A stretch of DNA of 38,106 bases, from contig CAZWUX010000004.1 of NCBI GenBank assembly GCA_964637665.1, positions 3,080 to 41,185 on the forward strand. The letters run 5' to 3'. This document shows positions 3,149 through 17,613 of this stretch, piece by piece; the stretch's first letter is position 1; each line of letters starts with the position of its first letter. Below the pieces are notes generated by a model, which saw only the letters and a program-made list of their open reading frames with translations, was not told the DNA's origin and did no database searches. The translations under genes were made by a program, and so were the position numbers. Origin of the DNA: an uncultured Anaerolineae bacterium (GTDB lineage: Bacteria > Chloroflexota > Anaerolineae > Aggregatilineales > UBA3940).

Positions 3149-4981
3149 TTACAGATACATCGCGCTCAGGAAGTGCCGCTGAAATTCGGGGTGTGTGGTC
3201 AGCTCGACGTATTCCACGCGCCGCAGGAACGCGTCGATCACGCCCTGCTGCTCGTTCGAGAGCAGCACGCGCTGCGCGCCCATGCCCGCCGCGTTGCCGA
3301 CCTGCCGGAAGCGCTCGACGGGGATATCCGGGAACATCCCGATGCGGATCGCGTTCGGGACGTCGATGTACGTCCCGAACGCGCCCGCCACGATAAACGT
3401 CTGTATCTCGTCCGCCGGGATGCCCGCCTCGGCCAGCAGGATGTCGATCCCGGCCCGAATGGCCGCCTTGGCAAGCTGAATTTCGTTCACGTCGCTGCGG
3501 GTGATGGTGATATCGCGGCCATGTCCGGTTTTTTCCGCCGGAACGAGCACGAACTCCGGGGGTTTGCCGTCCCCCCCGGCCCTCACCTGCGGGTGATCGA
3601 CGATCAAAGCGCCTGTGTTCTCGATAATGCCCGCCGAGCGCATCTCAGCGACGGCGTCCAGAATACCCGACCCGCAGATTCCGACCGGCGGTGCGTCGTC
3701 GATCGTGTAGATGAGCGTGTCGCCCTCCGTCAGGCGGATGCGCTCGACCGCGCCCGCTGCGGCCCGCATCCCCGCGCGGATGTGCGCGCCCTCGAACGCC
3801 GGGCCGGAGGCGCACGAGCAGCTCAACAGGCGATCGCCGACCGCCAGCGTGATCTCGGTGTTCGTCCCGATGTCGAGGGCGATGGCCGGTTCGTCGAACT
3901 GCCAGATGCCGGTCGCCAGAATCATCGCGACGTGGTCGGCCCCGACGTAGCCCGCGATGTTCGGCAGCAGGTGGACGCGCGCCCCCGATGCCAGTTCGAG
4001 GCCGAGATCGTGCGCCCGCATGTCGAGCGCATCGCTCACGGCGGGCACGTAGGGCGACAGCGCAAGCTGCCGGACCGGAAGCCCGGCGAACAGGTGGTGC
4101 ATGGCCGTATTGCCCACGACGACGGCCTCGACGACGTGCTCAGGCGGTTGGCTCACCTCGCCGCACATCTCCGCCACCATGCCGTTCAGAGCCTCGACCA
4201 CCTGTTGTTGGAGCGCCCGGCGGCCCTGCGCCTCTTGGTTGGCGTAGGCGATGCGGCTGATCACGTCCTCGCCATAGGCGATCTGCGGGTTCATCGCCCC
4301 CCGCTGGGCTAACACCGCGCCGGTCGCCAGATCGAGCAGATAGGCGGCCATCTTCGTCGTGCCGATGTCGACCGCCAGCCCCAGCAGCCGCGTCTCAGGC
4401 GGCAGCACGGCGACGACCTCGCCGCGCCGCAGCGCCAGCCGGGCGGACCAGTCGGCTGCCCGCAGCCGGTCCGACAGATCGGCCAGCAGCGGCCACCCGA
4501 TCGCGACCGGCGAAATCCCCTGCTCGGCCAGCGCGTCTCTAAGCCGCGTCGTGTCCGAGCGTAAATCGTGCAATGTGGGCGGGCTGAGCGTCACGTCGAC
4601 GGCCTTTACCGGCGGATTTAGGTCCACGTCGGCCCGCTGGCCCTCGACCTGAAGCCGCTGCGGGGCGGACAGCGATTCGGGCGGGATGTCGATCCGAACG
4701 TCGCCCAGCACCCGCGCCTGGCAGGCCATCCGCAGGCCCCCGGCCAACTCGTCGGCAGTCAGGATATCCTCCTCCGCCGTCGTCGGCGGGGAGAGCCTGC
4801 CCTCCACCACCCGCACGATGCAGCTCTCACACCAGCCCTCGCCGCCGCACAGCGAGACGATCCCGACGCCCGCCGACTGCGCGGCGGCCAGCAGCGTCGT
4901 GCCGGGTTCGACCTCGATCCGGCGTCCGACCGGCTCCATGTCGACGAGCAGGTGTCCGGCGTCAGGTGGTGGCTGGCTCAT
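3149..4981 (-). CDS. corrinoid reductive activase (RACo/AcsV/RamA-like): N-terminal plant-type 2Fe-2S ferredoxin + ASKHA ATPase (DUF4445) domain
   Basis: 610 aa. The N-terminus has the cysteine pattern SLCGGEGWCESC...ACQ. ASKHA phosphate motifs follow: LAVDIGTTKMAAY, VVVGNTAMHHL, ALDIGTNTEI, CSCASGPAFEG. The start overlaps the upstream gene by 20 nt. Confidence 0.8.
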   Translation of the reverse strand: MSQPPPDAGHLLVDMEPVGRRIEVEPGTTLLAAAQSAGVGIVSLCGGEGWCESCIVRVVEGRLSPPTTAEEDILTADELAGGLRMACQARVLGDVRIDIPPESLSAPQRLQVEGQRADVDLNPPVKAVDVTLSPPTLHDLRSDTTRLRDALAEQGISPVAIGWPLLADLSDRLRAADWSARLALRRGEVVAVLPPETRLLGLAVDIGTTKMAAYLLDLATGAVLAQRGAMNPQIAYGEDVISRIAYANQEAQGRRALQQQVVEALNGMVAEMCGEVSQPPEHVVEAVVVGNTAMHHLFAGLPVRQLALSPYVPAVSDALDMRAHDLGLELASGARVHLLPNIAGYVGADHVAMILATGIWQFDEPAIALDIGTNTEITLAVGDRLLSCSCASGPAFEGAHIRAGMRAAAGAVERIRLTEGDTLIYTIDDAPPVGICGSGILDAVAEMRSAGIIENTGALIVDHPQVRAGGDGKPPEFVLVPAEKTGHGRDITITRSDVNEIQLAKAAIRAGIDILLAEAGIPADEIQTFIVAGAFGTYIDVPNAIRIGMFPDIPVERFRQVGNAAGMGAQRVLLSNEQQGVIDAFLRRVEYVELTTHPEFQRHFLSAMYL

Positions 4982-6473: not shown

Positions 6474-7868
6474 CTAGTCCCAGGGTCCCTGCTCGAACGC
6501 GAGTCCGAGCGAGGACAGTTCTTCCTTCACCCGGCGGTAGCAGTCCTGCCATTCCTGCGTGGGCGTGACGGTCTTGACGTTGTAGGCTTCGGAGAAAGGC
6601 TTGCCGCGCTTCGGATTCTTGAACGTGTCTTTGTACTTTTCGAGCAGCGTGAGGGCGATCTCGTTGGCCTGCTCGCGGGTGATCCCGGCGCGGGTCGTCG
6701 CGCGGGCCACCTCACCCTGGAAGCCACATTCCAGCCCGGTGTGGTGATCGACCAGGTTGCCGCCCGTGCTGCCGACGCCGTGCTGCGTGAAGCTGCACAC
6801 CTCGCCCAGCATGGCGTGCCCGGCCACCTCGTAGAGCAGCTCGTCGGTGCAGGGGCCGCACATGCAGAAGGGGTCGTCCGTGTAGACGAGGTGCGTGTTG
6901 CGCCCCATCGCCTGCCCGACGGTCGACAGGACGTACATGCCCCAGGGATCGGAGTTGTTCGTCCACTTGATGTGCGTGATGCTGAGGTAGTGATAGGTGG
7001 CGAAGTAGCAGATCACGCCGATCAGGAACTCGGCAACCGAGACGATGGCGACACCCTCCGGTGGCCCACCGACCCCGCCCGTGAGCGGCGTCATCAGGTT
7101 GACGATGTGCGATCCGTAGTTAAGTAGATGCGGAACGCGGGCAAGCTGATCGTCGTCGACCTTCAACTCGCACATCTGGGCGACCAATCGCCCATCACAG
7201 GGTCGCAGACCGTTGACCGGCTCGCTCGCCGCCATCTTGCCGATGGCGGTCATGCCGGTCGCCGCGTCGCCGATGTGCATCCCCGGACGCCCGACCCGGC
7301 GCACGGCCTCGCGCGCGCTGGCGGCGTCGCGCTGGACGGCCATGACCTCCGTCAGCGTTCTCGCCATGATGTCGTAGCCGTTGTAGGTCAGCGTCGCGCC
7401 CGACTCGATGGCGTCCACGTAGGGTTCCTGCGCGTAGCTGATCAGCAGCGGCAGGTAGTAGTCCTCGCTGCACGGCTGCCCGGCGGGGCCGGTGAGATTG
7501 TACGACGGGCTGGGGTCCTCGACGCCGCGATGCTTCGCGACGACCATATCCGCGCCCTCGCCCAGCCGCAGCTCGGACGGCGCGTACCGCAGGGCCTCCA
7601 TGATCTCCGAGCGGCTGAACTTGATCACCCGCTGGGTGTCGAGGTGGTAGCAGCCCACGTCGAGCAGAAGCTGCACCCCGGCCTCAAACAGCCGGTCGGC
7701 CATCGCGTCATCTGACGGGCAGACAAGCTGCGGGTCATAGGTGATCTCGTATTCTCTCGCGAGTTCTACCACGCGGCGTCCGACCATCAGGTCGAACTCG
7801 ACTTCCTTCATGAACGGGCCTGAGCGCGAGCGCTGGTAGATCTCCATCAAACGGTCGTTCATGAACAT
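6474..7868 (-). CDS. MtmB-family (monomethylamine:corrinoid methyltransferase-like) protein lacking pyrrolysine
   Basis: 464 aa and uninterrupted. Blocks shared with my recollection of archaeal MtmB: GRPGM, ELKVD, PLTGGVGG, HIKW, CGPCTDE, TGLE..GEVARAT, AYNVKTVTPTQEW. The gene follows the corrinoid protein gene with a 2-nt gap. Confidence 0.75.
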   Translation of the reverse strand: MFMNDRLMEIYQRSRSGPFMKEVEFDLMVGRRVVELAREYEITYDPQLVCPSDDAMADRLFEAGVQLLLDVGCYHLDTQRVIKFSRSEIMEALRYAPSELRLGEGADMVVAKHRGVEDPSPSYNLTGPAGQPCSEDYYLPLLISYAQEPYVDAIESGATLTYNGYDIMARTLTEVMAVQRDAASAREAVRRVGRPGMHIGDAATGMTAIGKMAASEPVNGLRPCDGRLVAQMCELKVDDDQLARVPHLLNYGSHIVNLMTPLTGGVGGPPEGVAIVSVAEFLIGVICYFATYHYLSITHIKWTNNSDPWGMYVLSTVGQAMGRNTHLVYTDDPFCMCGPCTDELLYEVAGHAMLGEVCSFTQHGVGSTGGNLVDHHTGLECGFQGEVARATTRAGITREQANEIALTLLEKYKDTFKNPKRGKPFSEAYNVKTVTPTQEWQDCYRRVKEELSSLGLAFEQGPWD

Positions 7869-7870
7869 GG

Positions 7871-8545
7871 CTATGCTTCCTTTCGAGCAGCGAGAAGGGA
7901 ATTGGCAACCTGCACGGCGCCCGACGCCGAATCGGAATAGCCGTTCGCGCCGATCTCGTCGGCATATTCCTGATCGATGGAGCCGCCGCCGACGATGAAG
8001 AGGTACTTATCTTCCAGGCCAAGCTCGCGCAGCAGGTCGGCGACCTCGCGCGCACCGGCCCGCGTGATGCTCATCAGGGCCGACGCGGCGATCACGTCCG
8101 CGCCGTTGCTCTCGGCGGCATCGATGAAGTCCGCCGCCGCCACGTCCTTGCCGAGATCCACCACCTTGTAGTTGTGGGCCTTGAACAGGCTGGCGACGAT
8201 GTTCTTGCCGATGTCGTGGATGTCGCCCTTGACCGTGCCCAGAATGACGAGGCCCTGCGCTTCCATCGCGCCGCCCCGGCTGGTGATGGCATCCTCGATG
8301 ACCTTCGAGGCCGCGTTGCCCGCCTCGCCTGCCGCCATCAACTCAGGCAGGAAAATTTCGAGGTCCTCGAAGCGCCTGCCGACTTCGGTCAGGGTGGGGA
8401 CGATCACCTGCTGGACGAGGGCCAGCGGCTCGATGCCCCCCTCCAGCGCCGCCTCCGTCGCGGCGGCTGCGGCCTCGCGGTCGCCCTGAGCCAGCGCCGA
8501 CGCCAGTTTCTCGGCTACGTCGTTTGGAATGGTAGATGCGGTCAC
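7871..8545 (-). CDS. cobalamin-binding corrinoid protein (MtmC/MttC/MtbC-like, B12-binding cap + Rossmann domain)
   Basis: 224 aa with the DxHxxG signature GDIHDIGKN, SALMSIT and GGG motifs, and an N-terminal helical cap. GTG start at 8545 with SD AGGAGGGAG 6 nt upstream. Confidence 0.85.
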   Translation of the reverse strand: MTASTIPNDVAEKLASALAQGDREAAAAATEAALEGGIEPLALVQQVIVPTLTEVGRRFEDLEIFLPELMAAGEAGNAASKVIEDAITSRGGAMEAQGLVILGTVKGDIHDIGKNIVASLFKAHNYKVVDLGKDVAAADFIDAAESNGADVIAASALMSITRAGAREVADLLRELGLEDKYLFIVGGGSIDQEYADEIGANGYSDSASGAVQVANSLLAARKEA

Positions 8546-8656: not shown

Positions 8657-8845
8657 CAAAAAGGAGCAGGGCCACATACGCTGACGGTACATGGGTCTGC
8701 TCCTTCTCCTCGGAAAAATGCAGTTGCCTCTGGAAATCGCGGCTGGTGATCTGGCTTCGGCCCGGTTTAGCTCACGCCGGACGCCTCACAGTTGCGGGAC
8801 AGCGCCGGATTCTCACCGTCTTCCCCCGCCGCTTTTCCTTGTTGT
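8657..8845 (-). promoter_or_regulatory. cobalamin (B12) riboswitch, copy B, with intrinsic terminator
   Basis: The reverse-strand RNA reads GGGGGAAGACGGUGAGAAUCCGGCGCUGUCCCGCAACUGUGAGGCGUCCGGCGUGAGCUAAACCGGGCCGAAGCCAGAUCACCAGCCGCG. It has the same core and B12-box as copy A. The terminator follows: GGAGCAG...CUGCUCC + UUUUUG (8657-8703). It sits about 110 nt upstream of the corrinoid protein start. Confidence 0.85.
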
Positions 8846-9054
8846 GTCAGGTTGTCAGAAGGCTCCTTCGCGCCAGCGGGCCTGATCGGCAGCGATTCTC
8901 GGCCCAGAAAAGGGAGATGGCATGTGCTCAGGCTGGTGTTCATTCGGTCAACCGACCTAATTTGATCCAAGCATAGGGGACATTCACCCGGCGCTCAACT
9001 GACGAATGTCACCGTCCACCTGTGACGTTTGTCAACCAGAGGGGGCGAATCCAC

Positions 9055-9131: not shown

Positions 9132-10592
9132 TCACCTGAGCGGCGTGGGGAACGTCACCTCGCCGATGATCTGCTCGATCTGCGCCTGCACCTCCGGGGG
9201 CAGCGGCGGGACCTCGTGCGTCGCGATGATTTTCCGCAGTTTCTCCTCGACCCGGTCTCCCAGCGTCTTGCCGCCCGACCCTTCCCACAGGGTGTACGCC
9301 TGCCGGTCCAGCACGGTCGGCACCCATATCTCCCGGCGGCAGACCTCGACCGAGCGCGGCTCCGCGAGGTAGTGGCCGCCCGGCCCGATCTGCTCGATCA
9401 GATCGAGCATGATCGTCTCCGCGCTGACCTCGATCCCGCGCAGCATGTGCCGGACCATGCCGATGATCTCATCGCACATCACGACCAGCGGCAGCGACCC
9501 GATGTGGCCGCTGTCCATAAAGCCCAGATCATGCACCATCGCCGCGCTGCTCAGCGCTGACATGATGACCTGCGCCGTGACCTCGATGGCCGCCTGCTGG
9601 TCGAGCACCTTGCTCTCCGTCGCCCCGGCGGTCCCCATAAACGGGATGCCCAGCCAGCGGCACAGGTCGGACCCGGCGGCGCTGAGCTGGCTCATCTCCG
9701 GCGCACCGTAGGCGGGCCGCGTCGTGCGCAGATCCATCGGCTGGGGCACCCAGTCGGTGACGAAGGGCGCGCCGCGCCGCTTAAGCTGGACGATCGCCAG
9801 CCCGCTCAACATACCCGCGAGGTAAAGCGCCAGCGCGCTCGCCCCGGTGAACGGCGCGGTCAGCCCCGGATTGGGGCCGCCTGAGTAAATGACCGGGATG
9901 CCATGCTCCGCCGCATAAAGGACGCTGCCCATCTCGTCGTTCATGTGCTTGAGCGGCGGCTGGAAGGTCGTGAACAGCGCGAAATTCGGGCGCTGCCGGA
10001 AGGCCCGCTCGCCCCCGGCGGTGGCTGCCGCCATCCGGTGGATGGCCGCCAGATTTTCCGGCCCGTAGGCCCACGCCACGATGGGCTTGGTCGTGTTCGC
10101 CAGCATCTCCGCGAACTCATAGACCGGCACCCACGCCGGGTCGGGCACGTCGTCGATCAGGCCCAACCCCATCACATAGTCGACGTTGGGCAGCGCATCG
10201 CACACCCGCGCCGTCAGGCCGGGGTCCCCCCGGCGCGATTTCCGCTTCTCACCCGTGTTCGGGTCGACGAAGTACGTGCTCGTCAGGCCCGGCCCGAAGT
10301 GGACGCGGCCCTGCGCGATCTGGATCGCCTTCGCCGGATCCCGCCCGTACAGCGTAAAGCCGCGTGGGGCCGACGCCAGCGCATCGCGCACGATGTGCGC
10401 CGGGATGGTCACCCGGTCGCCCTCGGCCTGCGCTCCGGCCCCGACCAGCAGATCGCGCGCCTCCTGATTGTAGACGAGGACCCCTGTGCGCCGGAGAATC
10501 TCATACGCGGCGTCGAGCAGGATCCTGCATTTTTGCTCCGAAAGAACGTTGAACTGTGGCGTCTGGTGATCGGCGTTGCTCGTGATGATCAT
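9132..10592 (-). CDS. MttB-superfamily (trimethylamine methyltransferase-like, COG5598) non-pyrrolysine methyltransferase
   Basis: 486 aa with no in-frame TAG. The overall pattern is typical of MttB homologues: N-terminal LSEQKCRILLDAAYEILRRTGV, GPGL, the FMGTAG..ESK region, and GPGGHYL near the C-terminus. Confidence 0.75.
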   Translation of the reverse strand: MIITSNADHQTPQFNVLSEQKCRILLDAAYEILRRTGVLVYNQEARDLLVGAGAQAEGDRVTIPAHIVRDALASAPRGFTLYGRDPAKAIQIAQGRVHFGPGLTSTYFVDPNTGEKRKSRRGDPGLTARVCDALPNVDYVMGLGLIDDVPDPAWVPVYEFAEMLANTTKPIVAWAYGPENLAAIHRMAAATAGGERAFRQRPNFALFTTFQPPLKHMNDEMGSVLYAAEHGIPVIYSGGPNPGLTAPFTGASALALYLAGMLSGLAIVQLKRRGAPFVTDWVPQPMDLRTTRPAYGAPEMSQLSAAGSDLCRWLGIPFMGTAGATESKVLDQQAAIEVTAQVIMSALSSAAMVHDLGFMDSGHIGSLPLVVMCDEIIGMVRHMLRGIEVSAETIMLDLIEQIGPGGHYLAEPRSVEVCRREIWVPTVLDRQAYTLWEGSGGKTLGDRVEEKLRKIIATHEVPPLPPEVQAQIEQIIGEVTFPTPLR

Positions 10593-13925: not shown

Positions 13926-14798
13926 ATGGCCGTACTTAGCGGAAAAACCGTCGTCATCACCGGCGGCACGCGGGGTTTTGGGCTGGCGGCGGCGCTGGCC
14001 TGCGCGCGTGAAGGGGCAGCCATCGTTGTCGCTTCTCGCTCTGAAGACGCCGTCAAACAAGCCGTCGAATCGATCCGCGAGGCGGGCGGCGCAGCCAGCG
14101 GCCTTCGCTGCGATGTGGGCGATATGGCGCAGGTCGAGGCGCTGGCCCGCCACGCCATCGATACCTGCGGCGGGTTTGAGGTATGGGTCAACAACGCGGG
14201 GATTTCCCCCACGTACGGGCCAACGCTGCATATCCCCCCGGATGAGTTTATCGCCACCACGCACACGAACATCATCGGCACGTACAACGGCACACGGGCG
14301 GCGATGCAGCACTTTCTGCCGCGCGGAACCGGCAAACTGATCAACATCTCCGGGCGGGGAGCGCGCGGCCCGGTGCCTTTTCAGAACGCCTATGCCTCGA
14401 GCAAAGCATGGATCAAGTCCTTCACGCTCGCGCTGGCAGATGAGTATAAAGATTCAGGCGTCGAGGTGATGCTTTTCAGCCCCGGCATGATGCTGACGGA
14501 TATGATGACCGATGTTGGTGTCGTAGAGGGCTACGCGGCCCGGCTCGACTCTTTTGAGACCGTACTGCGGATGTGGGCATACCCGCCGGAGGTTCCGGCG
14601 GAAAAAGTCGTATGGCTTGCATCAGATGCAACGGATGGCAAAACGGGCCTTTCAGAAAATGTGCTGGGGCCGTTCACTATGCTGCGCGGCGCGCTGCGTG
14701 AAGGGTTGCGCAGGCTGTTCGGGCGGCCTGCTCAGGACCTCGGTGTCGAAGTGCACACCGTAAAGTCGGCATTCCACCCGCTGCCCGATAAAGGCTGA
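13926..14798 (+). CDS. short-chain dehydrogenase/reductase (SDR) family oxidoreductase
   Basis: TGGTRGFG dinucleotide-binding motif, NNAG, and catalytic YASSK (YxxxK). 290 aa. Confidence 0.85.
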   Translation: MAVLSGKTVVITGGTRGFGLAAALACAREGAAIVVASRSEDAVKQAVESIREAGGAASGLRCDVGDMAQVEALARHAIDTCGGFEVWVNNAGISPTYGPTLHIPPDEFIATTHTNIIGTYNGTRAAMQHFLPRGTGKLINISGRGARGPVPFQNAYASSKAWIKSFTLALADEYKDSGVEVMLFSPGMMLTDMMTDVGVVEGYAARLDSFETVLRMWAYPPEVPAEKVVWLASDATDGKTGLSENVLGPFTMLRGALREGLRRLFGRPAQDLGVEVHTVKSAFHPLPDKG

Positions 14799-14900
14799 AC
14801 GTACAGGCCGGGGTGTGCGCGCCCGGTTCCCCGCGCGGCGTGCGAAATTCTTAAGGAAAGCCACTGGCGCTATCGTACGAAACGTGATAGGCTTACGTCC

Positions 14901-15002
14901 ATGAACGAGTTACTGTCCAGCAACCCGGCGCGAATGTCGATGTCCATGTATATGATGATGCATGGCGCCTTCCGGCAGCCAGGTTGCTTATTGACTCGTT
15001 AA
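14901..15002 (+). CDS. candidate Met-rich leader peptide (33 aa) of the metA-metY operon
   Basis: Too short for the ORF track. ATG 14901 to TAA 15000-15002 gives MNELLSSNPARMSMSMYMMMHGAFRQPGCLLTR. There are six in-frame ATG in codons 12-20. The SD is weak (GATAGG). A terminator follows. Confidence 0.55.
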   Translation: MNELLSSNPARMSMSMYMMMHGAFRQPGCLLTR

Positions 15003-15032
15003 CCGGCGCGATTTTTCCCGCAGCGAGAGTTC

Positions 15033-15070
15033 AGAGAGCTAACCAGGCTGGTTAGCTCTCTTTTCTTTTG
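15033..15070 (+). terminator. intrinsic terminator (attenuator) in the metA leader
   Basis: AGAGAGCUAACC-aggcu-GGUUAGCUCUCU (12 bp) followed by UUUCUUUUG. It lies 92 nt upstream of the metA ATG, and no gene ends here. Confidence 0.8.
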
Positions 15071-15161
15071 CGCCGGGCCGTCGTTATCTCACGAAATATG
15101 GAGTTTTCGCCTGATGGCGAAAACTCCCAGTTGAGCGCGTAGCGCTCATACGGAGCGTTGT

Positions 15162-16226
15162 ATGCCACTCGTCGAACATACCCATCTACCGGCATTCGGA
15201 CGCCTGCGCCAGCGCGGTCAGGAGGTGCTGACGCTCGAACGCGCATTGACGCAGGATATCCGCGAGCTACACATCGGGTTCCTCAACATGATGCCCGACG
15301 CGGCGCTCCGCGCCACCGAGGAGCAGTTCATGCGGCTGGTGGGCAACTCGAACCAGATCGCCCAATTCTACGTCCACCCTTTCTCCATCGACGGCGTGCC
15401 GCGCGGCGCGGAAGCGCAGGCATACATCGACCAGTACTACACCACGTTCGATCAGCTTCGCGCGGACGGGCTGGACGCCCTGATCATCACCGGGGCCAAC
15501 GTGACGAACCCCGATCTGGAGAACGAGGATTTCTGGGGGCCGCTGACGGAGGTGATGGAGTGGGCGTCCGAGTACGTCACCTCCGTGCTGTGTTCGTGCC
15601 TCGCCACGCACATTCTCATGCAGTGTTTTTACGGCATCAAGCGGCGGCATCTCCCCCAGAAACGCTGGGGGGTGTTCAACCATCGCCTCGCCTATCCGGG
15701 CCATCCCCTGCTGCGCGATGTCAACACCCGCTTCGACGTGCCCCACTCGCGCCACAACGAGATCACCCGCGAACAGCTTGACGAGGCAGGCCTGACCGTG
15801 CTCATCGACAGCCCGGAGGCCGGAGTCCACATGGCCGTCAGCCCCGACCAGTTCCGGCGCGTGTTCTTTCAGGGCCACCCGGAGTACGACATCAACAGCC
15901 TGCTCAAGGAGTACAAACGGGAGGTGCGGCGCTACCTGAACGGCGAGCGCGGCTGTCCGCCATACCCCGCCAACTACTTCTCGCCGGAGGCGCAGGCCAT
16001 CGCCGGTGACTACATCGAGCGCGCGCTCCGCACCCGCCACAACGGCACCAAGCCGCCGCCGTTCCCTGAGGGGGACATCCTCCCCCATGTCGATAACACG
16101 TGGGGCGACACGAGCAAGGCGGTGTTCAACAACTGGCTGGGGCTGGTCTACCAGCTAACACACGTCGACCGCCACGTTCTGTTCATCGAGGGCGTCGATC
16201 CCGACAATCCGCTGGGGCTGCTCTGA
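15162..16226 (+). CDS. metA: homoserine O-acyltransferase (MetA/HTS family; probably O-acetyl given the MetY partner)
   Basis: 354 aa, collinear with E. coli MetA as I recall it: IGFLNMMP, ALIITGA, WASEYVTS, VPHSRHNE, GHPEYD, NWL..VYQ. Confidence 0.9.
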   Translation: MPLVEHTHLPAFGRLRQRGQEVLTLERALTQDIRELHIGFLNMMPDAALRATEEQFMRLVGNSNQIAQFYVHPFSIDGVPRGAEAQAYIDQYYTTFDQLRADGLDALIITGANVTNPDLENEDFWGPLTEVMEWASEYVTSVLCSCLATHILMQCFYGIKRRHLPQKRWGVFNHRLAYPGHPLLRDVNTRFDVPHSRHNEITREQLDEAGLTVLIDSPEAGVHMAVSPDQFRRVFFQGHPEYDINSLLKEYKREVRRYLNGERGCPPYPANYFSPEAQAIAGDYIERALRTRHNGTKPPPFPEGDILPHVDNTWGDTSKAVFNNWLGLVYQLTHVDRHVLFIEGVDPDNPLGLL

Positions 16227-16341: not shown

Positions 16342-17613
16342 ATGAAGCCGGAAACCATCGCCATACACGGCGGCTACGAAAGCGACCCCACCACGAAGGC
16401 CGTCGCCGTGCCCATCTACCAGACCGTCGCCTACGAGTTCGACAACGCCCAGCACGGGGCCGATCTGTTCAATCTGGCCGTGCCGGGCAACATCTACACG
16501 CGCATCATGAACCCCACCAACGACGTGCTGGAGAAGCGCGTCGCCGCACTGGAGGGCGGCGTGGGAGCGCTGGCCCTCAGCGCGGGCAGCGCGGCGGTGA
16601 ACTACTCCGTGCTCAACATCACCGCCGCAGGGAACAACGTCGTGTCCGTGCCGCTGCTCTACGGCGGCAGCTACACGCTGTTCGCCCACATGTTCCCCAA
16701 ACAGGGCATCGAGGTCCGTTTCGGCGAGGACGACAGCCCCGCCGCGCTCGAATCCCTGATCGACGATAAGACGACGGCGGTTTTCTGCGAGTCGATCGGC
16801 AACCCCGCCGGGAACATCCCCGATCTCGAAGCCATCGCCGAGATGGCCCACGCGCACGGCGTCCCCGTCATCGTGGATAACACCGTCGCGACCCCCATCC
16901 TGATCCGCCCCTTCGACTACGGCGCGGATATCGTCGTGCACTCCCTCACCAAGTACATGGGCGGCCACGGCAATTCCCTGGGCGGCATCATCGTCGATTC
17001 GGGACAATTCCCCTGGGCCGAGCACGCCGAGCGCTTCCCCATGCTCAACGAGCCGGAGCCGTCCTATCACGGCGTCGTCTACACCGAGGCGATGGGCGAG
17101 GCGGCCTACATCGCCCGCGCCCGCACCGTCCCGCTGCGCAACACGGGGTCGGCCCTCAGCCCGTTCAACACCTTTTTGATTTTGCAGGGCATCGAGACGC
17201 TCCCCCTGCGCATGGAGCGCCACTGCGACAACGCCGCCGCCGTCGCGGGTTATCTCAGCCAGCACCCGAAGGTCAACTGGGTGAGCTACGCCGGGCTGCC
17301 CGACTCGCCCTACTACGATCTGGCCCAGAAGTATACGAACGGCAGACCATCCGCCCTGCTGTCTTTCGGCGTCGAGGGCGGGTTCGACGCCGGGGTGAAG
17401 GTCTACGACGCGCTCAAAATCTTCAAGCGGCTGGTCAACATCGGCGACGCGAAGTCGCTGGCCGCCCATCCCGCCTCCACCACGCACCGCCAGCTTTCGG
17501 CGGAGGAGCTTGCGGCGGCGGGCGTCACCGACGACATGATCCGCTTATGCGTCGGCATCGAGAACATCGACGATATTATTGGCGATCTGGATCAGGCCCT
17601 CGCCCTCGTCTGA
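16342..17613 (+). CDS. metY: O-acetylhomoserine sulfhydrylase / aminocarboxypropyltransferase (PLP-dependent)
   Basis: 423 aa. Motifs: PIYQT.AY.F, YTRIMNPTNDVLEKRVAALEGG, the PLP-lysine motif SLTKYMGGHG, and LVNIGDAKSLA.HPASTTH. Confidence 0.9.
   Translation: MKPETIAIHGGYESDPTTKAVAVPIYQTVAYEFDNAQHGADLFNLAVPGNIYTRIMNPTNDVLEKRVAALEGGVGALALSAGSAAVNYSVLNITAAGNNVVSVPLLYGGSYTLFAHMFPKQGIEVRFGEDDSPAALESLIDDKTTAVFCESIGNPAGNIPDLEAIAEMAHAHGVPVIVDNTVATPILIRPFDYGADIVVHSLTKYMGGHGNSLGGIIVDSGQFPWAEHAERFPMLNEPEPSYHGVVYTEAMGEAAYIARARTVPLRNTGSALSPFNTFLILQGIETLPLRMERHCDNAAAVAGYLSQHPKVNWVSYAGLPDSPYYDLAQKYTNGRPSALLSFGVEGGFDAGVKVYDALKIFKRLVNIGDAKSLAAHPASTTHRQLSAEELAAAGVTDDMIRLCVGIENIDDIIGDLDQALALV

Follow-up and report, generated by a model that had tools for sequence, protein, structure and literature searches.

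The region upstream of metA and metY was analyzed in an uncultured Anaerolineae bacterium (contig CAZWUX010000004.1 of assembly GCA_964637665.1). The whole stretch, 38,106 nucleotides (nt) in length, is called the window here. Its G+C content is 64.6%, and ATG is seen at 1.2% of trinucleotide positions. Directly upstream of metA lies a short open reading frame (ORF) with a run of methionine (Met) codons, and the ORF is followed by an intrinsic terminator. The features of this putative leader-peptide attenuator and of the two genes downstream are as follows.

14864..14869, plus strand: −35-like hexamer CTGGCG, 18 nt 5' of the −10 element; putative promoter element.
14885..14893, plus strand: extended −10 element TGaTAGGCT (hexamer TAGGCT at 14888–14893), ending exactly 7 nt before the ATG of the leader ORF.
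14901..15002, plus strand: leader ORF of 33 codons plus TAA (15000–15002), encoding MNELLSSNPARMSMSMYMMMHGAFRQPGCLLTR.
14904..14925, plus strand: segment 1, the 5' strand of the putative anti-antiterminator, pairing with 14982–15000.
14934..14960, plus strand: putative regulatory codon run M-S-M-S-M-Y-M-M-M, codons 12–20, with six ATG in nine codons.
14977..15000, plus strand: segment 2, the 3' end of the ORF (codons Q-P-G-C-L-L-T-R), with segment 1 or segment 3 as its partner.
15022..15049, plus strand: segment 3, the 5' arm and loop of the terminator with a short upstream extension; putative antiterminator partner of segment 2.
15033..15070, plus strand: intrinsic terminator (segments 3:4), a perfect 13-bp stem (15033–15061) with a 3-nt GGC loop, then TTTCTTTTG; the tail after the GGC loop is UUUUCUUUUG.
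15162..16226, plus strand: metA, homoserine O-acyltransferase (long form), the first gene of the regulated pair (NF003776, 465.6 bits, cut-off 358).
16342..17613, plus strand: metY, O-acetylhomoserine sulfhydrylase, the second gene of the operon (TIGR01326, 635.9 bits).

The terminator begins 30 nt after the stop codon of the leader and ends 92 nt 5' of the metA ATG. The upstream neighbor is an unrelated SDR oxidoreductase gene (13926–14798), transcribed in the same direction as the terminator. The ORF with its six ATG, the terminator and the metA-metY pair had all been named in a preliminary description of this DNA. The ORF is present as described, the terminator was recovered by a pattern scan, and the identity of the two genes is given by the profile matches above.

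The Met run is the only stretch with six ATG in nine codons across the six frames of the window, and the runners-up contain four. When the window was simulated 200 times with a first-order Markov model, the maximum per nine codons was three ATG (163 times), four (36 times) or five (once), and never six. The second-richest stretch is at 14481–14510 on the plus strand, in the region of the SDR gene. It has four ATG per nine codons in one frame and is probably a chance occurrence.

The distribution of the leader was investigated in two ways. A search of genome and metagenome contigs with MetA yielded 160 loci, mostly 62–70% identical (Chloroflexota, Gemmatimonadota, and others), and the closest MetA homologues from a protein search were inspected on twelve contigs. 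Among the 160 loci, the leader was found in L081 and L001 only. A crude scan of distant loci for Met runs returned mostly antisense frames of upstream genes. MetA of the window has its best match among GTDB species representatives at 70% identity, in metagenome-assembled genomes (MAGs) of Anaerolineae or other Chloroflexota. In total, the leader family has nine members with eight distinct sequences. The eight members besides the window are listed below with the identity of their MetA to that of the window.

L161: MetA 92%; leader peptide identical to that of the window.
L162: MetA 80%; leader peptide MSQATPPTVEARMCVTMHMGMMMCHDAYQRPGCLVTQ.
L163/L164: MetA 78%; leader peptide MSQPTPSTAEARMCVTMHMGMMMCFDASQQPGCLVTQ.
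L166: MetA 77%; leader peptide MVAINTSLPKSQMQVSSMYMCMMCGNAFRQPGGLMC.
L081: MetA 78%; leader peptide MSEIRVRIPQSMAAESMCMGMCMMMCCHACRLPGCLMTR.
L171: MetA 77%; leader peptide as in L081 with two changes, S11M and M23V.
L172: MetA 72%; leader peptide MSANTLRIQSNQMTSTMMMAMWMMCSGANRLPGCLMAR.
L001 (Anaerolineae MAG): MetA 70%; leader peptide MMNKIIFPGDKSQECMQRMCAMCMYKTASATRMIACLVMP, more distant, with a homologous terminator.

The leader ORF is open in frame in all nine members, 33–40 codons in length, and always directly 5' of metA. Each member contains 5–7 Met codons within 9–13 codons. In the alignment of the eight sequences, five of the six ATG triplets occupy invariant columns. The residues between these invariant ATGs vary (S, C, Y, G, H, V, T, A, and W), and the N-terminal 11–16 residues are unrelated. 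L162 and L163 differ at 10 codons, none of them in the Met run or in the PGCLVTQ tail. The in-frame ATG run and the terminator are thus conserved among metA upstream regions and the flanking codons drift, as the preliminary description had expected of an attenuator. A search pattern for the family can be written as TAnnnT, 7 nt, ATG, 10–16 codons, at least 5 ATG in 10 codons, 10–14 codons, stop, 25–45 nt, AGAGRGCYAACC … GGTTRGCTCTC. Runs of at least five ATG per nine codons occur 11 times in the six frames of 0.96 Mb of fetched DNA, and eight of these are the Met leader. On the contigs with gene calls that carry the leader (L161–L164, L166, L171, and L172), the gene callers did not call its ORF.

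The comparison between the window and L161 is the closest one. Their leader ORFs are identical at 102 of 102 nt. Their metA genes are 90% identical, and the promoter region and the spacer between the terminator and metA are each 84% identical. The genes upstream differ across the loci: an SDR gene, proB, or a divergent gene for TetR, PadR or a membrane protein. The leader element therefore travels with metA, and the order metA-metY is also seen in L165, L166, L168, and L170. An ORF formed by chance, followed by a terminator that belongs to the SDR gene, would fit the position of the hairpin in the window, on the same strand as the SDR gene and 235 nt past its stop codon. The comparative data effectively refute this explanation and leave it next to no chance: in homologues the upstream gene is a different one or is divergent and the ORF and the terminator stay with metA, the Met run was never matched in simulations, and the leader is more conserved than metA itself.

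The distance from the terminator to metA ranges from 40 to 190 nt in the family. In L081, L171, L162, and L163, only 40–50 nt separate the T-run from metA, and no promoter-like sequence was found in this gap. The upstream gene is divergent in L081, L171, L166, and L172. Given a divergent upstream gene and no promoter after the terminator, metA must be transcribed through the terminator from the leader promoter. No other observation argues more strongly that the hairpin is a regulatory attenuator rather than the terminator of an independent gene.

The same loci bear on another explanation, in which the ORF encodes a functional micropeptide rich in Met, Cys, and His, for example one that binds Cu(I) or another metal. 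The hairpin would then terminate the micropeptide gene, and metA would be expressed independently. The MxM, MMM, Cys, and His motifs are similar to Met motifs that bind metals, and the length and composition of the peptide are conserved. Against this, the element is always immediately 5' of metA whatever lies further upstream, and the four loci with the short gap have neither room for nor a match to a separate metA promoter past the terminator. Several relatives carry 3–6 Cys codons in and after the Met run (six in L081), and in the leader of the window Ser, Gly or Tyr stand in place of Cys; the ATG triplets are thus conserved and the putative metal ligands are not. A micropeptide also leaves the alternative pairing of segments 2 and 3 and the covariation of the terminator loop, both described below, unexplained. 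Five leader peptides were scanned against Pfam and NCBIfam, including the NCBI leader-peptide models, and no match was found at E ≤ 10. A micropeptide of this kind is very unlikely.

The sequence upstream of the ORF suggests how it could be transcribed and translated. The hexamer TAnnnT is seen at exactly −13 to −8 from the leader ATG in eight of nine members. In seven of these eight, TG is located one base 5' of the hexamer, and in L001 TG abuts the hexamer directly. The 7-nt spacer between hexamer and ATG differs in sequence among members. The background frequency of TAnnnT at a fixed offset is 0.003 in the window. L172 is the exception: its hexamer is 10 nt upstream of the ATG, which predicts a 3-nt leader. 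At the −35 position, CTGGCG of the window corresponds to CTGGCG, CTGGCA, TTGGTG, TTGACA (L081) or TTTGCA in homologues. None of the Shine-Dalgarno tetramers GGAG, GAGG, AGGA, and AAGG is present within 20 nt 5' of any of the nine leader ATGs. metA itself has the Shine-Dalgarno sequence GGAG, which in the window lies at least 80 nt past the terminator. TAnnnT about 12 nt upstream of the start codon is a signature of bacterial leaderless genes (PMC3160421). Given this spacing of 7 nt and the lack of a Shine-Dalgarno sequence, the mRNA from which the leader ORF is translated is probably leaderless. The promoter geometry suggests that transcription probably starts at, or next to, A14901.

Known RNA elements were searched with Rfam 15. 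At gathering score, the whole window contains no SAM-I, SAM-II, SAM-IV, SAM-V, SAM-VI or SAM/SAH riboswitch (SAM, S-adenosylmethionine; SAH, S-adenosylhomocysteine) and no T-box. At E ≤ 10, no SAM class, SAM/SAH or T-box was seen over 14780–15200. The homologous leaders of L001, L162, L166, and L172 gave nothing at gathering score, and nothing relevant was found among the 20 loci scanned. The exclusion of a SAM riboswitch or a T-box, on which the preliminary description had made its proposal depend, therefore holds for the leader, the window and the four homologues. The best Rfam match near the leader was TD-2 at 15069–15155 (E = 0.077, 26 bits against a cut-off of 48.7), which lies 3' of the terminator and was rejected.

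A ligand-binding riboswitch of an undescribed class, for SAM, SAH or Met, with the ORF being incidental, could be considered instead. The leader is strongly structured (folding z = −4.1 against shuffles for the whole leader of the window), the genes controlled are typical targets of SAM riboswitches in other bacteria, and an expression platform of the terminator type is present. Yet Rfam has no match even at E ≤ 10, and the consensus fold shows no conserved aptamer-like helices besides the terminator. The sequence of the 5' half of the leader varies, and the place of its pairing partner changes from member to member. The conserved reading frame, the ATG triplets and the start position relative to the −10 element are not required by a riboswitch. 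Such a riboswitch is accordingly given a very low probability.

The predicted structures of the leader fall into three pairings. The first is the terminator, 3:4. Its hairpin has a folding energy of −20.0 kcal/mol in the window, and all members have a GC-containing stem of 12–13 bp and a U-run. One compensatory pair (UA↔CG, 4:4) is seen in the stem. RNAalifold on a MAFFT alignment recovers the terminator and a 3-bp stem only.

The second pairing, 1:2, is contained in the minimum-free-energy structure of the leader of the window, in agreement with the preliminary description. The N-terminal coding part aligns too poorly for a column-wise test of 1:2, and the duplex energy of each sequence was compared with shuffles instead. 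The duplex of the window reaches −31.2 kcal/mol (z = −5.1 against dinucleotide shuffles). By member, z is about −5 in the window and L161 and about −2 in L162, L163, L081, and L171, and no such duplex is seen in L166, L172, and L001. The location of segment 1 varies within the variable N-terminal coding region. In L162 and L163 it overlaps the Met codons. In the window it lies mostly 5' of the Met run, and the Met codons occupy the loop between segments 1 and 2.

The third pairing, 2:3, was folded on transcripts cut before segment 4 and with the part behind a stalled ribosome removed, as in co-transcriptional truncation. In these truncated transcripts, 2:3 is the minimum-free-energy structure in eight of eight aligned members. 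Its energies are −17.7 to −27.5 kcal/mol, compared with −14.9 to −22.4 kcal/mol for the terminator hairpins. The alternative pairing proposed for segments 2 and 3 thus appears once segment 4 is omitted. On the alignment, 80.5% of the cells of the 2:3 helix are standard pairs, against 20–55% in slid controls. One A-U↔U-A exchange is seen: CAGCC/GGCUG in the window corresponds to CUGCC/GGCAG in L081. This exchange involves a base of the terminator loop. The terminator alone leaves that base unconstrained, and so does not explain the swap.

The window leader was then folded with parts masked by a ribosome. With no ribosome, 1:2 is formed at −39.5 kcal/mol. For a ribosome on the Met run (leader nt 25–72 masked, transcript cut at nt 149), the fold of lowest free energy is 2:3, at −27.5 kcal/mol. 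When the ribosome is placed at the stop codon instead (nt 85–115 masked), segment 3 is unpaired and the terminator can form. These folds reproduce the three-state logic of the preliminary description. One of its structural statements, that a ribosome stalled on the Met run covers segment 1 and frees segment 2, stands in part. The last Met codon ends at leader nt 60 and segment 2 begins at nt 77, so that segment 2 remains accessible wherever in the run the ribosome stalls. Segment 1, by contrast, is located mostly 5' of the run and not on it. Likewise, the 1:2 helix is present in the window and is not universal in the family.

Taken together, these data make it likely that the leader is a ribosome-mediated transcription attenuator, which senses charged elongator tRNA-Met through its leader peptide and controls metA-metY. 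The evidence is comparative, and every in silico refutation test available favored this interpretation. The proposed mechanism is as follows. Transcription from the TGnTAnnnT promoter would begin at or next to the A of the ATG at 14901, and the leader ORF would be translated leaderless. When Met-tRNA is plentiful, the ribosome would pass the six Met codons, reach the stop codon at 15000 and cover the 3' half of segment 2. Segment 3 would then be free to form the 3:4 hairpin, and RNA polymerase would terminate at about 15070. When Met-tRNA is scarce, the ribosome would stall within 14934–14960, with a footprint that ends about 5 nt before segment 2 and separates segments 1 and 2. Segment 2 (14977–15000) could then pair with segment 3 (15022–15049) before segment 4 is made, no terminator would be formed, and metA-metY would be reached by read-through. 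With no ribosome at all, 1:2 would form in the leader of the window and lead to termination. In the relatives with 3–6 Cys codons, sensing might be broader and include sulfur amino acids generally. We infer the transcription start, the translation of the ORF, the stalling, the 3' end at about 15070 and the Met-dependent read-through from the sequences.

Several facts weigh against the Met attenuator. The 1:2 helix is strong only in the window and L161. The shuffle control for 2:3 is not significant, since 119–151 of 500 shuffles reach the observed values, and the z-scores of the 2:3 duplex are only −0.3 to −2.7. Covariation is thin, with one compensatory pair each in 3:4 and 2:3. The 2:3 helix is compatible with the family data, yet covariation does not prove it. 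At equilibrium, the full-length transcript retains the terminator in every ribosome-mask state, and the decision for antitermination must therefore be kinetic. The decision of the trp attenuator is likewise kinetic. The leader is missing in L165, L168, L169, L170, L173, and L175 (MetA 71–76%) and in about 150 more distant loci; as judged from these contigs, the family appears to be real but narrow. Met starvation also lowers formyl-Met-tRNA, which should reduce leaderless initiation and favor 1:2, and thus termination, in the window. In members without 1:2, the default of an untranslated leader would be read-through, if the model is correct. Finally, most changes in the C-terminal motif A-x-R/Q-x-P-G-C-L-x-T-R/Q fall on third codon positions, a hint that the peptide itself is under selection. 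A simple attenuator model does not need such selection.

The last point leads to a regulatory nascent peptide (…R-Q-P-G-C-L-L-T-R-stop). Like TnaC or MTO1 of CGS1, it would respond to a small molecule, Met or SAM for example, and halt the ribosome on or close to the stop codon. The tail motif is kept in eight of nine members. Its variation is mostly synonymous or at third positions (Pro CCA/CCG, Gly GGT/GGA/GGG, Leu TTA/TTG/CTC, Thr ACT/ACG, and Arg CGT/CGA/CGG), and each unpaired position of the 2:3 helix (columns 111, 114, and 120) is the third of its codon. The mask fold with a ribosome at the stop codon also yields the terminated state. The tail nucleotides, on the other hand, have to resemble segment 4 if they are to pair with segment 3, which is highly conserved, and selection at the RNA level thus explains most of the tail conservation. 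The Cys codon is always TGC, and its C is paired in eight of eight members. The motif is not strict, as L166 ends with GGLMC and L001 with IACLVMP, and the Pfam and NCBIfam scans revealed no likeness to known arrest peptides. The invariant Met run is left unexplained. Arrest by the nascent peptide is thus improbable, and there is the same small chance that an arrested ribosome holds segment 2 and enforces termination, together with Met-codon stalling or instead of it.

It can also be speculated, at long odds, that the leader is a sensor with two inputs. Stalling at the Met codons would report charged tRNA-Met, and the conserved nascent tail, read on a leaderless message, would report a second signal, for example SAM or free Met, by altering release at the stop codon. 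If this were true, the loss of 1:2 in some members would make the default without initiation an ON state, which would resolve the paradox of initiation under Met starvation. The leader would then join a classical attenuator to a bacterial equivalent of CGS1, the nascent-peptide SAM sensor of plants.

Other elements are seen close to metA in the window and its relatives. Between the terminator and metA of the window, there are two further perfect hairpins, GGAGTTTTCGCC-TGAT-GGCGAAAACTCC at 15100–15127 and TGAGCGC-GTA-GCGCTCA at about 15132–15148. In L161 (about 1005–1055), the stem corresponding to 15100–15127 is identical and its loop is the reverse complement (ATCA for TGAT), as if the palindrome was inverted. 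Both hairpins are absent from more distant family members. The hairpin at 15100–15127 was considered as a REP-like (repetitive extragenic palindromic) repeat, and this was rejected as it occurs in a single copy in the window.

Four sister loci without the leader ORF (MetA 71–76%) share the box GAATTGT(A/G)TCG(A/T)TTAAC, directly 5' of the metA promoter and overlapping it: L165 (about 1140–1210), L168 (about 1860–1930), L169 (about 1700–1770), and L170 (about 1830–1900). The metA promoter of these sister lineages is TTGnnn-17-TA(C/A)AAT. The box is probably the operator of some transcription factor. Such an operator-like box in sister lineages implies that the regulation of met genes was swapped between close lineages. 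In other Chloroflexota loci, of Ca. Leptofilum and a Caldilineaceae MAG (L074, 2740–2860, and L015, 2735–2830), short ORFs rich in Met and Cys are located 5' of metA. Examples are MMPIFFTNIPHNMMMCGMPCCICTKRGRFCTRLVPIVR and …WMRMRCALCCFPCVL, and no recognizable terminator is present. They might be leaders for sulfur amino acids with an effect on translation, either independent or diverged. A Promineifilaceae MAG (L002) contains a SAM-I riboswitch at 64–204, about 2.8 kb 5' of metA, where a longer met operon may begin. L004, a Litorilinea MAG, has a DUF3800-III RNA (71 bits) at 2710–2808 on the minus strand, about 200 nt 5' of metA and on the opposite strand.

The remaining genes of the window are ordinary chromosomal genes, such as those for SecA, Tpi, Fpg, and a corrinoid methyltransferase. 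Its only Rfam matches at gathering score are two cobalamin riboswitches, at 1995–2138 and 8723–8900, both on the minus strand. One of them precedes a pair of genes for a corrinoid protein and an MtmB-like methyltransferase (7871–8545 and 6474–7868), with an MttB-like gene (9132–10592) and RACo (3149–4981) nearby. The other precedes a gene of the adenosine-deaminase family (646–1668), an unusual target for a B12 riboswitch.

Attenuation by leader peptides is textbook knowledge, and met genes are known to be regulated by SAM riboswitches, T-boxes or proteins such as MetJ, MetR, and SahR. To our knowledge, methionine is a conspicuous gap among leader-peptide attenuators. It seemed awkward for attenuation, as the same amino acid and the same synthetase supply the initiator tRNA. 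If the interpretation as a Met attenuator is correct, ribosomes can be used as sensors of Met-tRNA, on a message that is probably leaderless. The leader could be a clean system to learn how the charging of elongator and initiator tRNA-Met is told apart in vivo, and would extend attenuator biology into an uncultured Chloroflexota-like lineage. It would also illustrate a fast turnover of met regulation, as sister lineages have a promoter and an operator-like box instead. In practice, the leader might serve as a compact and portable genetic part that responds to methionine.

Among known systems, SAM riboswitches (SAM-I/S-box, SAM-II/metA motif, SAM-IV, SAM-V, SAM-VI, and SAM/SAH) and Met T-boxes share with the Met leader the targets metA and metY and the output, premature termination. 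They differ in that none of their covariance models matched the leader at the thresholds tried, and in that the proposed sensor here is a translated ORF. The nascent-peptide sensors TnaC, SpeFL, and MTO1 of Arabidopsis CGS1, which senses SAM, share a regulatory upstream ORF whose peptide has a conserved tail just ahead of the stop codon. Like metA, CGS1 belongs to the methionine pathway. There is no sequence similarity to these sensors, and the tail conservation of the Met leader can be explained by RNA pairing.

The closest resemblance in architecture is seen with attenuators of the trp/his type: trpL, hisL, pheL, leuL, thrL, and ilvL in Proteobacteria, trp and leu in Actinobacteria, and his in Bacillus. 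The shared features are a cluster of codons for the end product in a short ORF, a terminator 5' arm that alternatively pairs with the 3' end of the ORF, and an upstream segment that, in the window, is predicted to sequester the antiterminator. In both, the position of the stop codon lets a terminating ribosome cover segment 2, and the element directly precedes the first biosynthetic gene. The Met leader is different in several respects. Its regulatory codon is that of Met, a single codon whose synthetase is shared with the initiator tRNA. Its ORF is apparently leaderless, not led by a Shine-Dalgarno sequence. The Met codons of the window lie in the loop between segments 1 and 2 and not inside segment 1, and the 1:2 helix is missing in some members. 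The host is an uncultured lineage, whose MetA is closest to those of Chloroflexota (Anaerolineae) MAGs.

The preliminary description knew of no characterized Met-codon attenuator. A full-text literature search for Met leader peptides and attenuators does not contradict this: no earlier report was found, although most subscription journals are outside its coverage and an earlier description is possible. Seliverstov et al. found no RNA element for the methionine operons of Actinobacteria (PMC1262725), and the list of Naville and Gautheret is without any Met leader (PMC2965389). For methionine, regulation of the trp/his type has apparently not been described so far; the mechanism is known and the amino acid is new.

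An experimental precedent for amino-acid-sensing attenuation comes from the leaderless short ORFs with poly-Cys of mycobacteria, the Cys "ribulon" (Canestrari et al., bioRxiv 10.1101/834739). There, as here, a sulfur-amino-acid operon begins with a short ORF as its first cistron; the ORF is leaderless in mycobacteria and predicted to be so in the Met leader. Several relatives of the Met leader also have 3–6 Cys codons within or beside the Met run. Met is the dominant codon here, and Cys in mycobacteria. The mycobacterial ORFs act on translation by unmasking a ribosome binding site and without a terminator, and Seliverstov et al. found no conserved terminator hairpins at mycobacterial Cys leaders (PMC1262725); the Met leader, by contrast, has a strong and conserved intrinsic terminator. 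Ribosome pausing in a run of codons for a single amino acid remodels the downstream RNA in the mycobacterial system, and the same is proposed for the Met leader. By this analogy, the leaderless poly-Cys short ORF of mycobacteria can be regarded as its nearest functional analogue.

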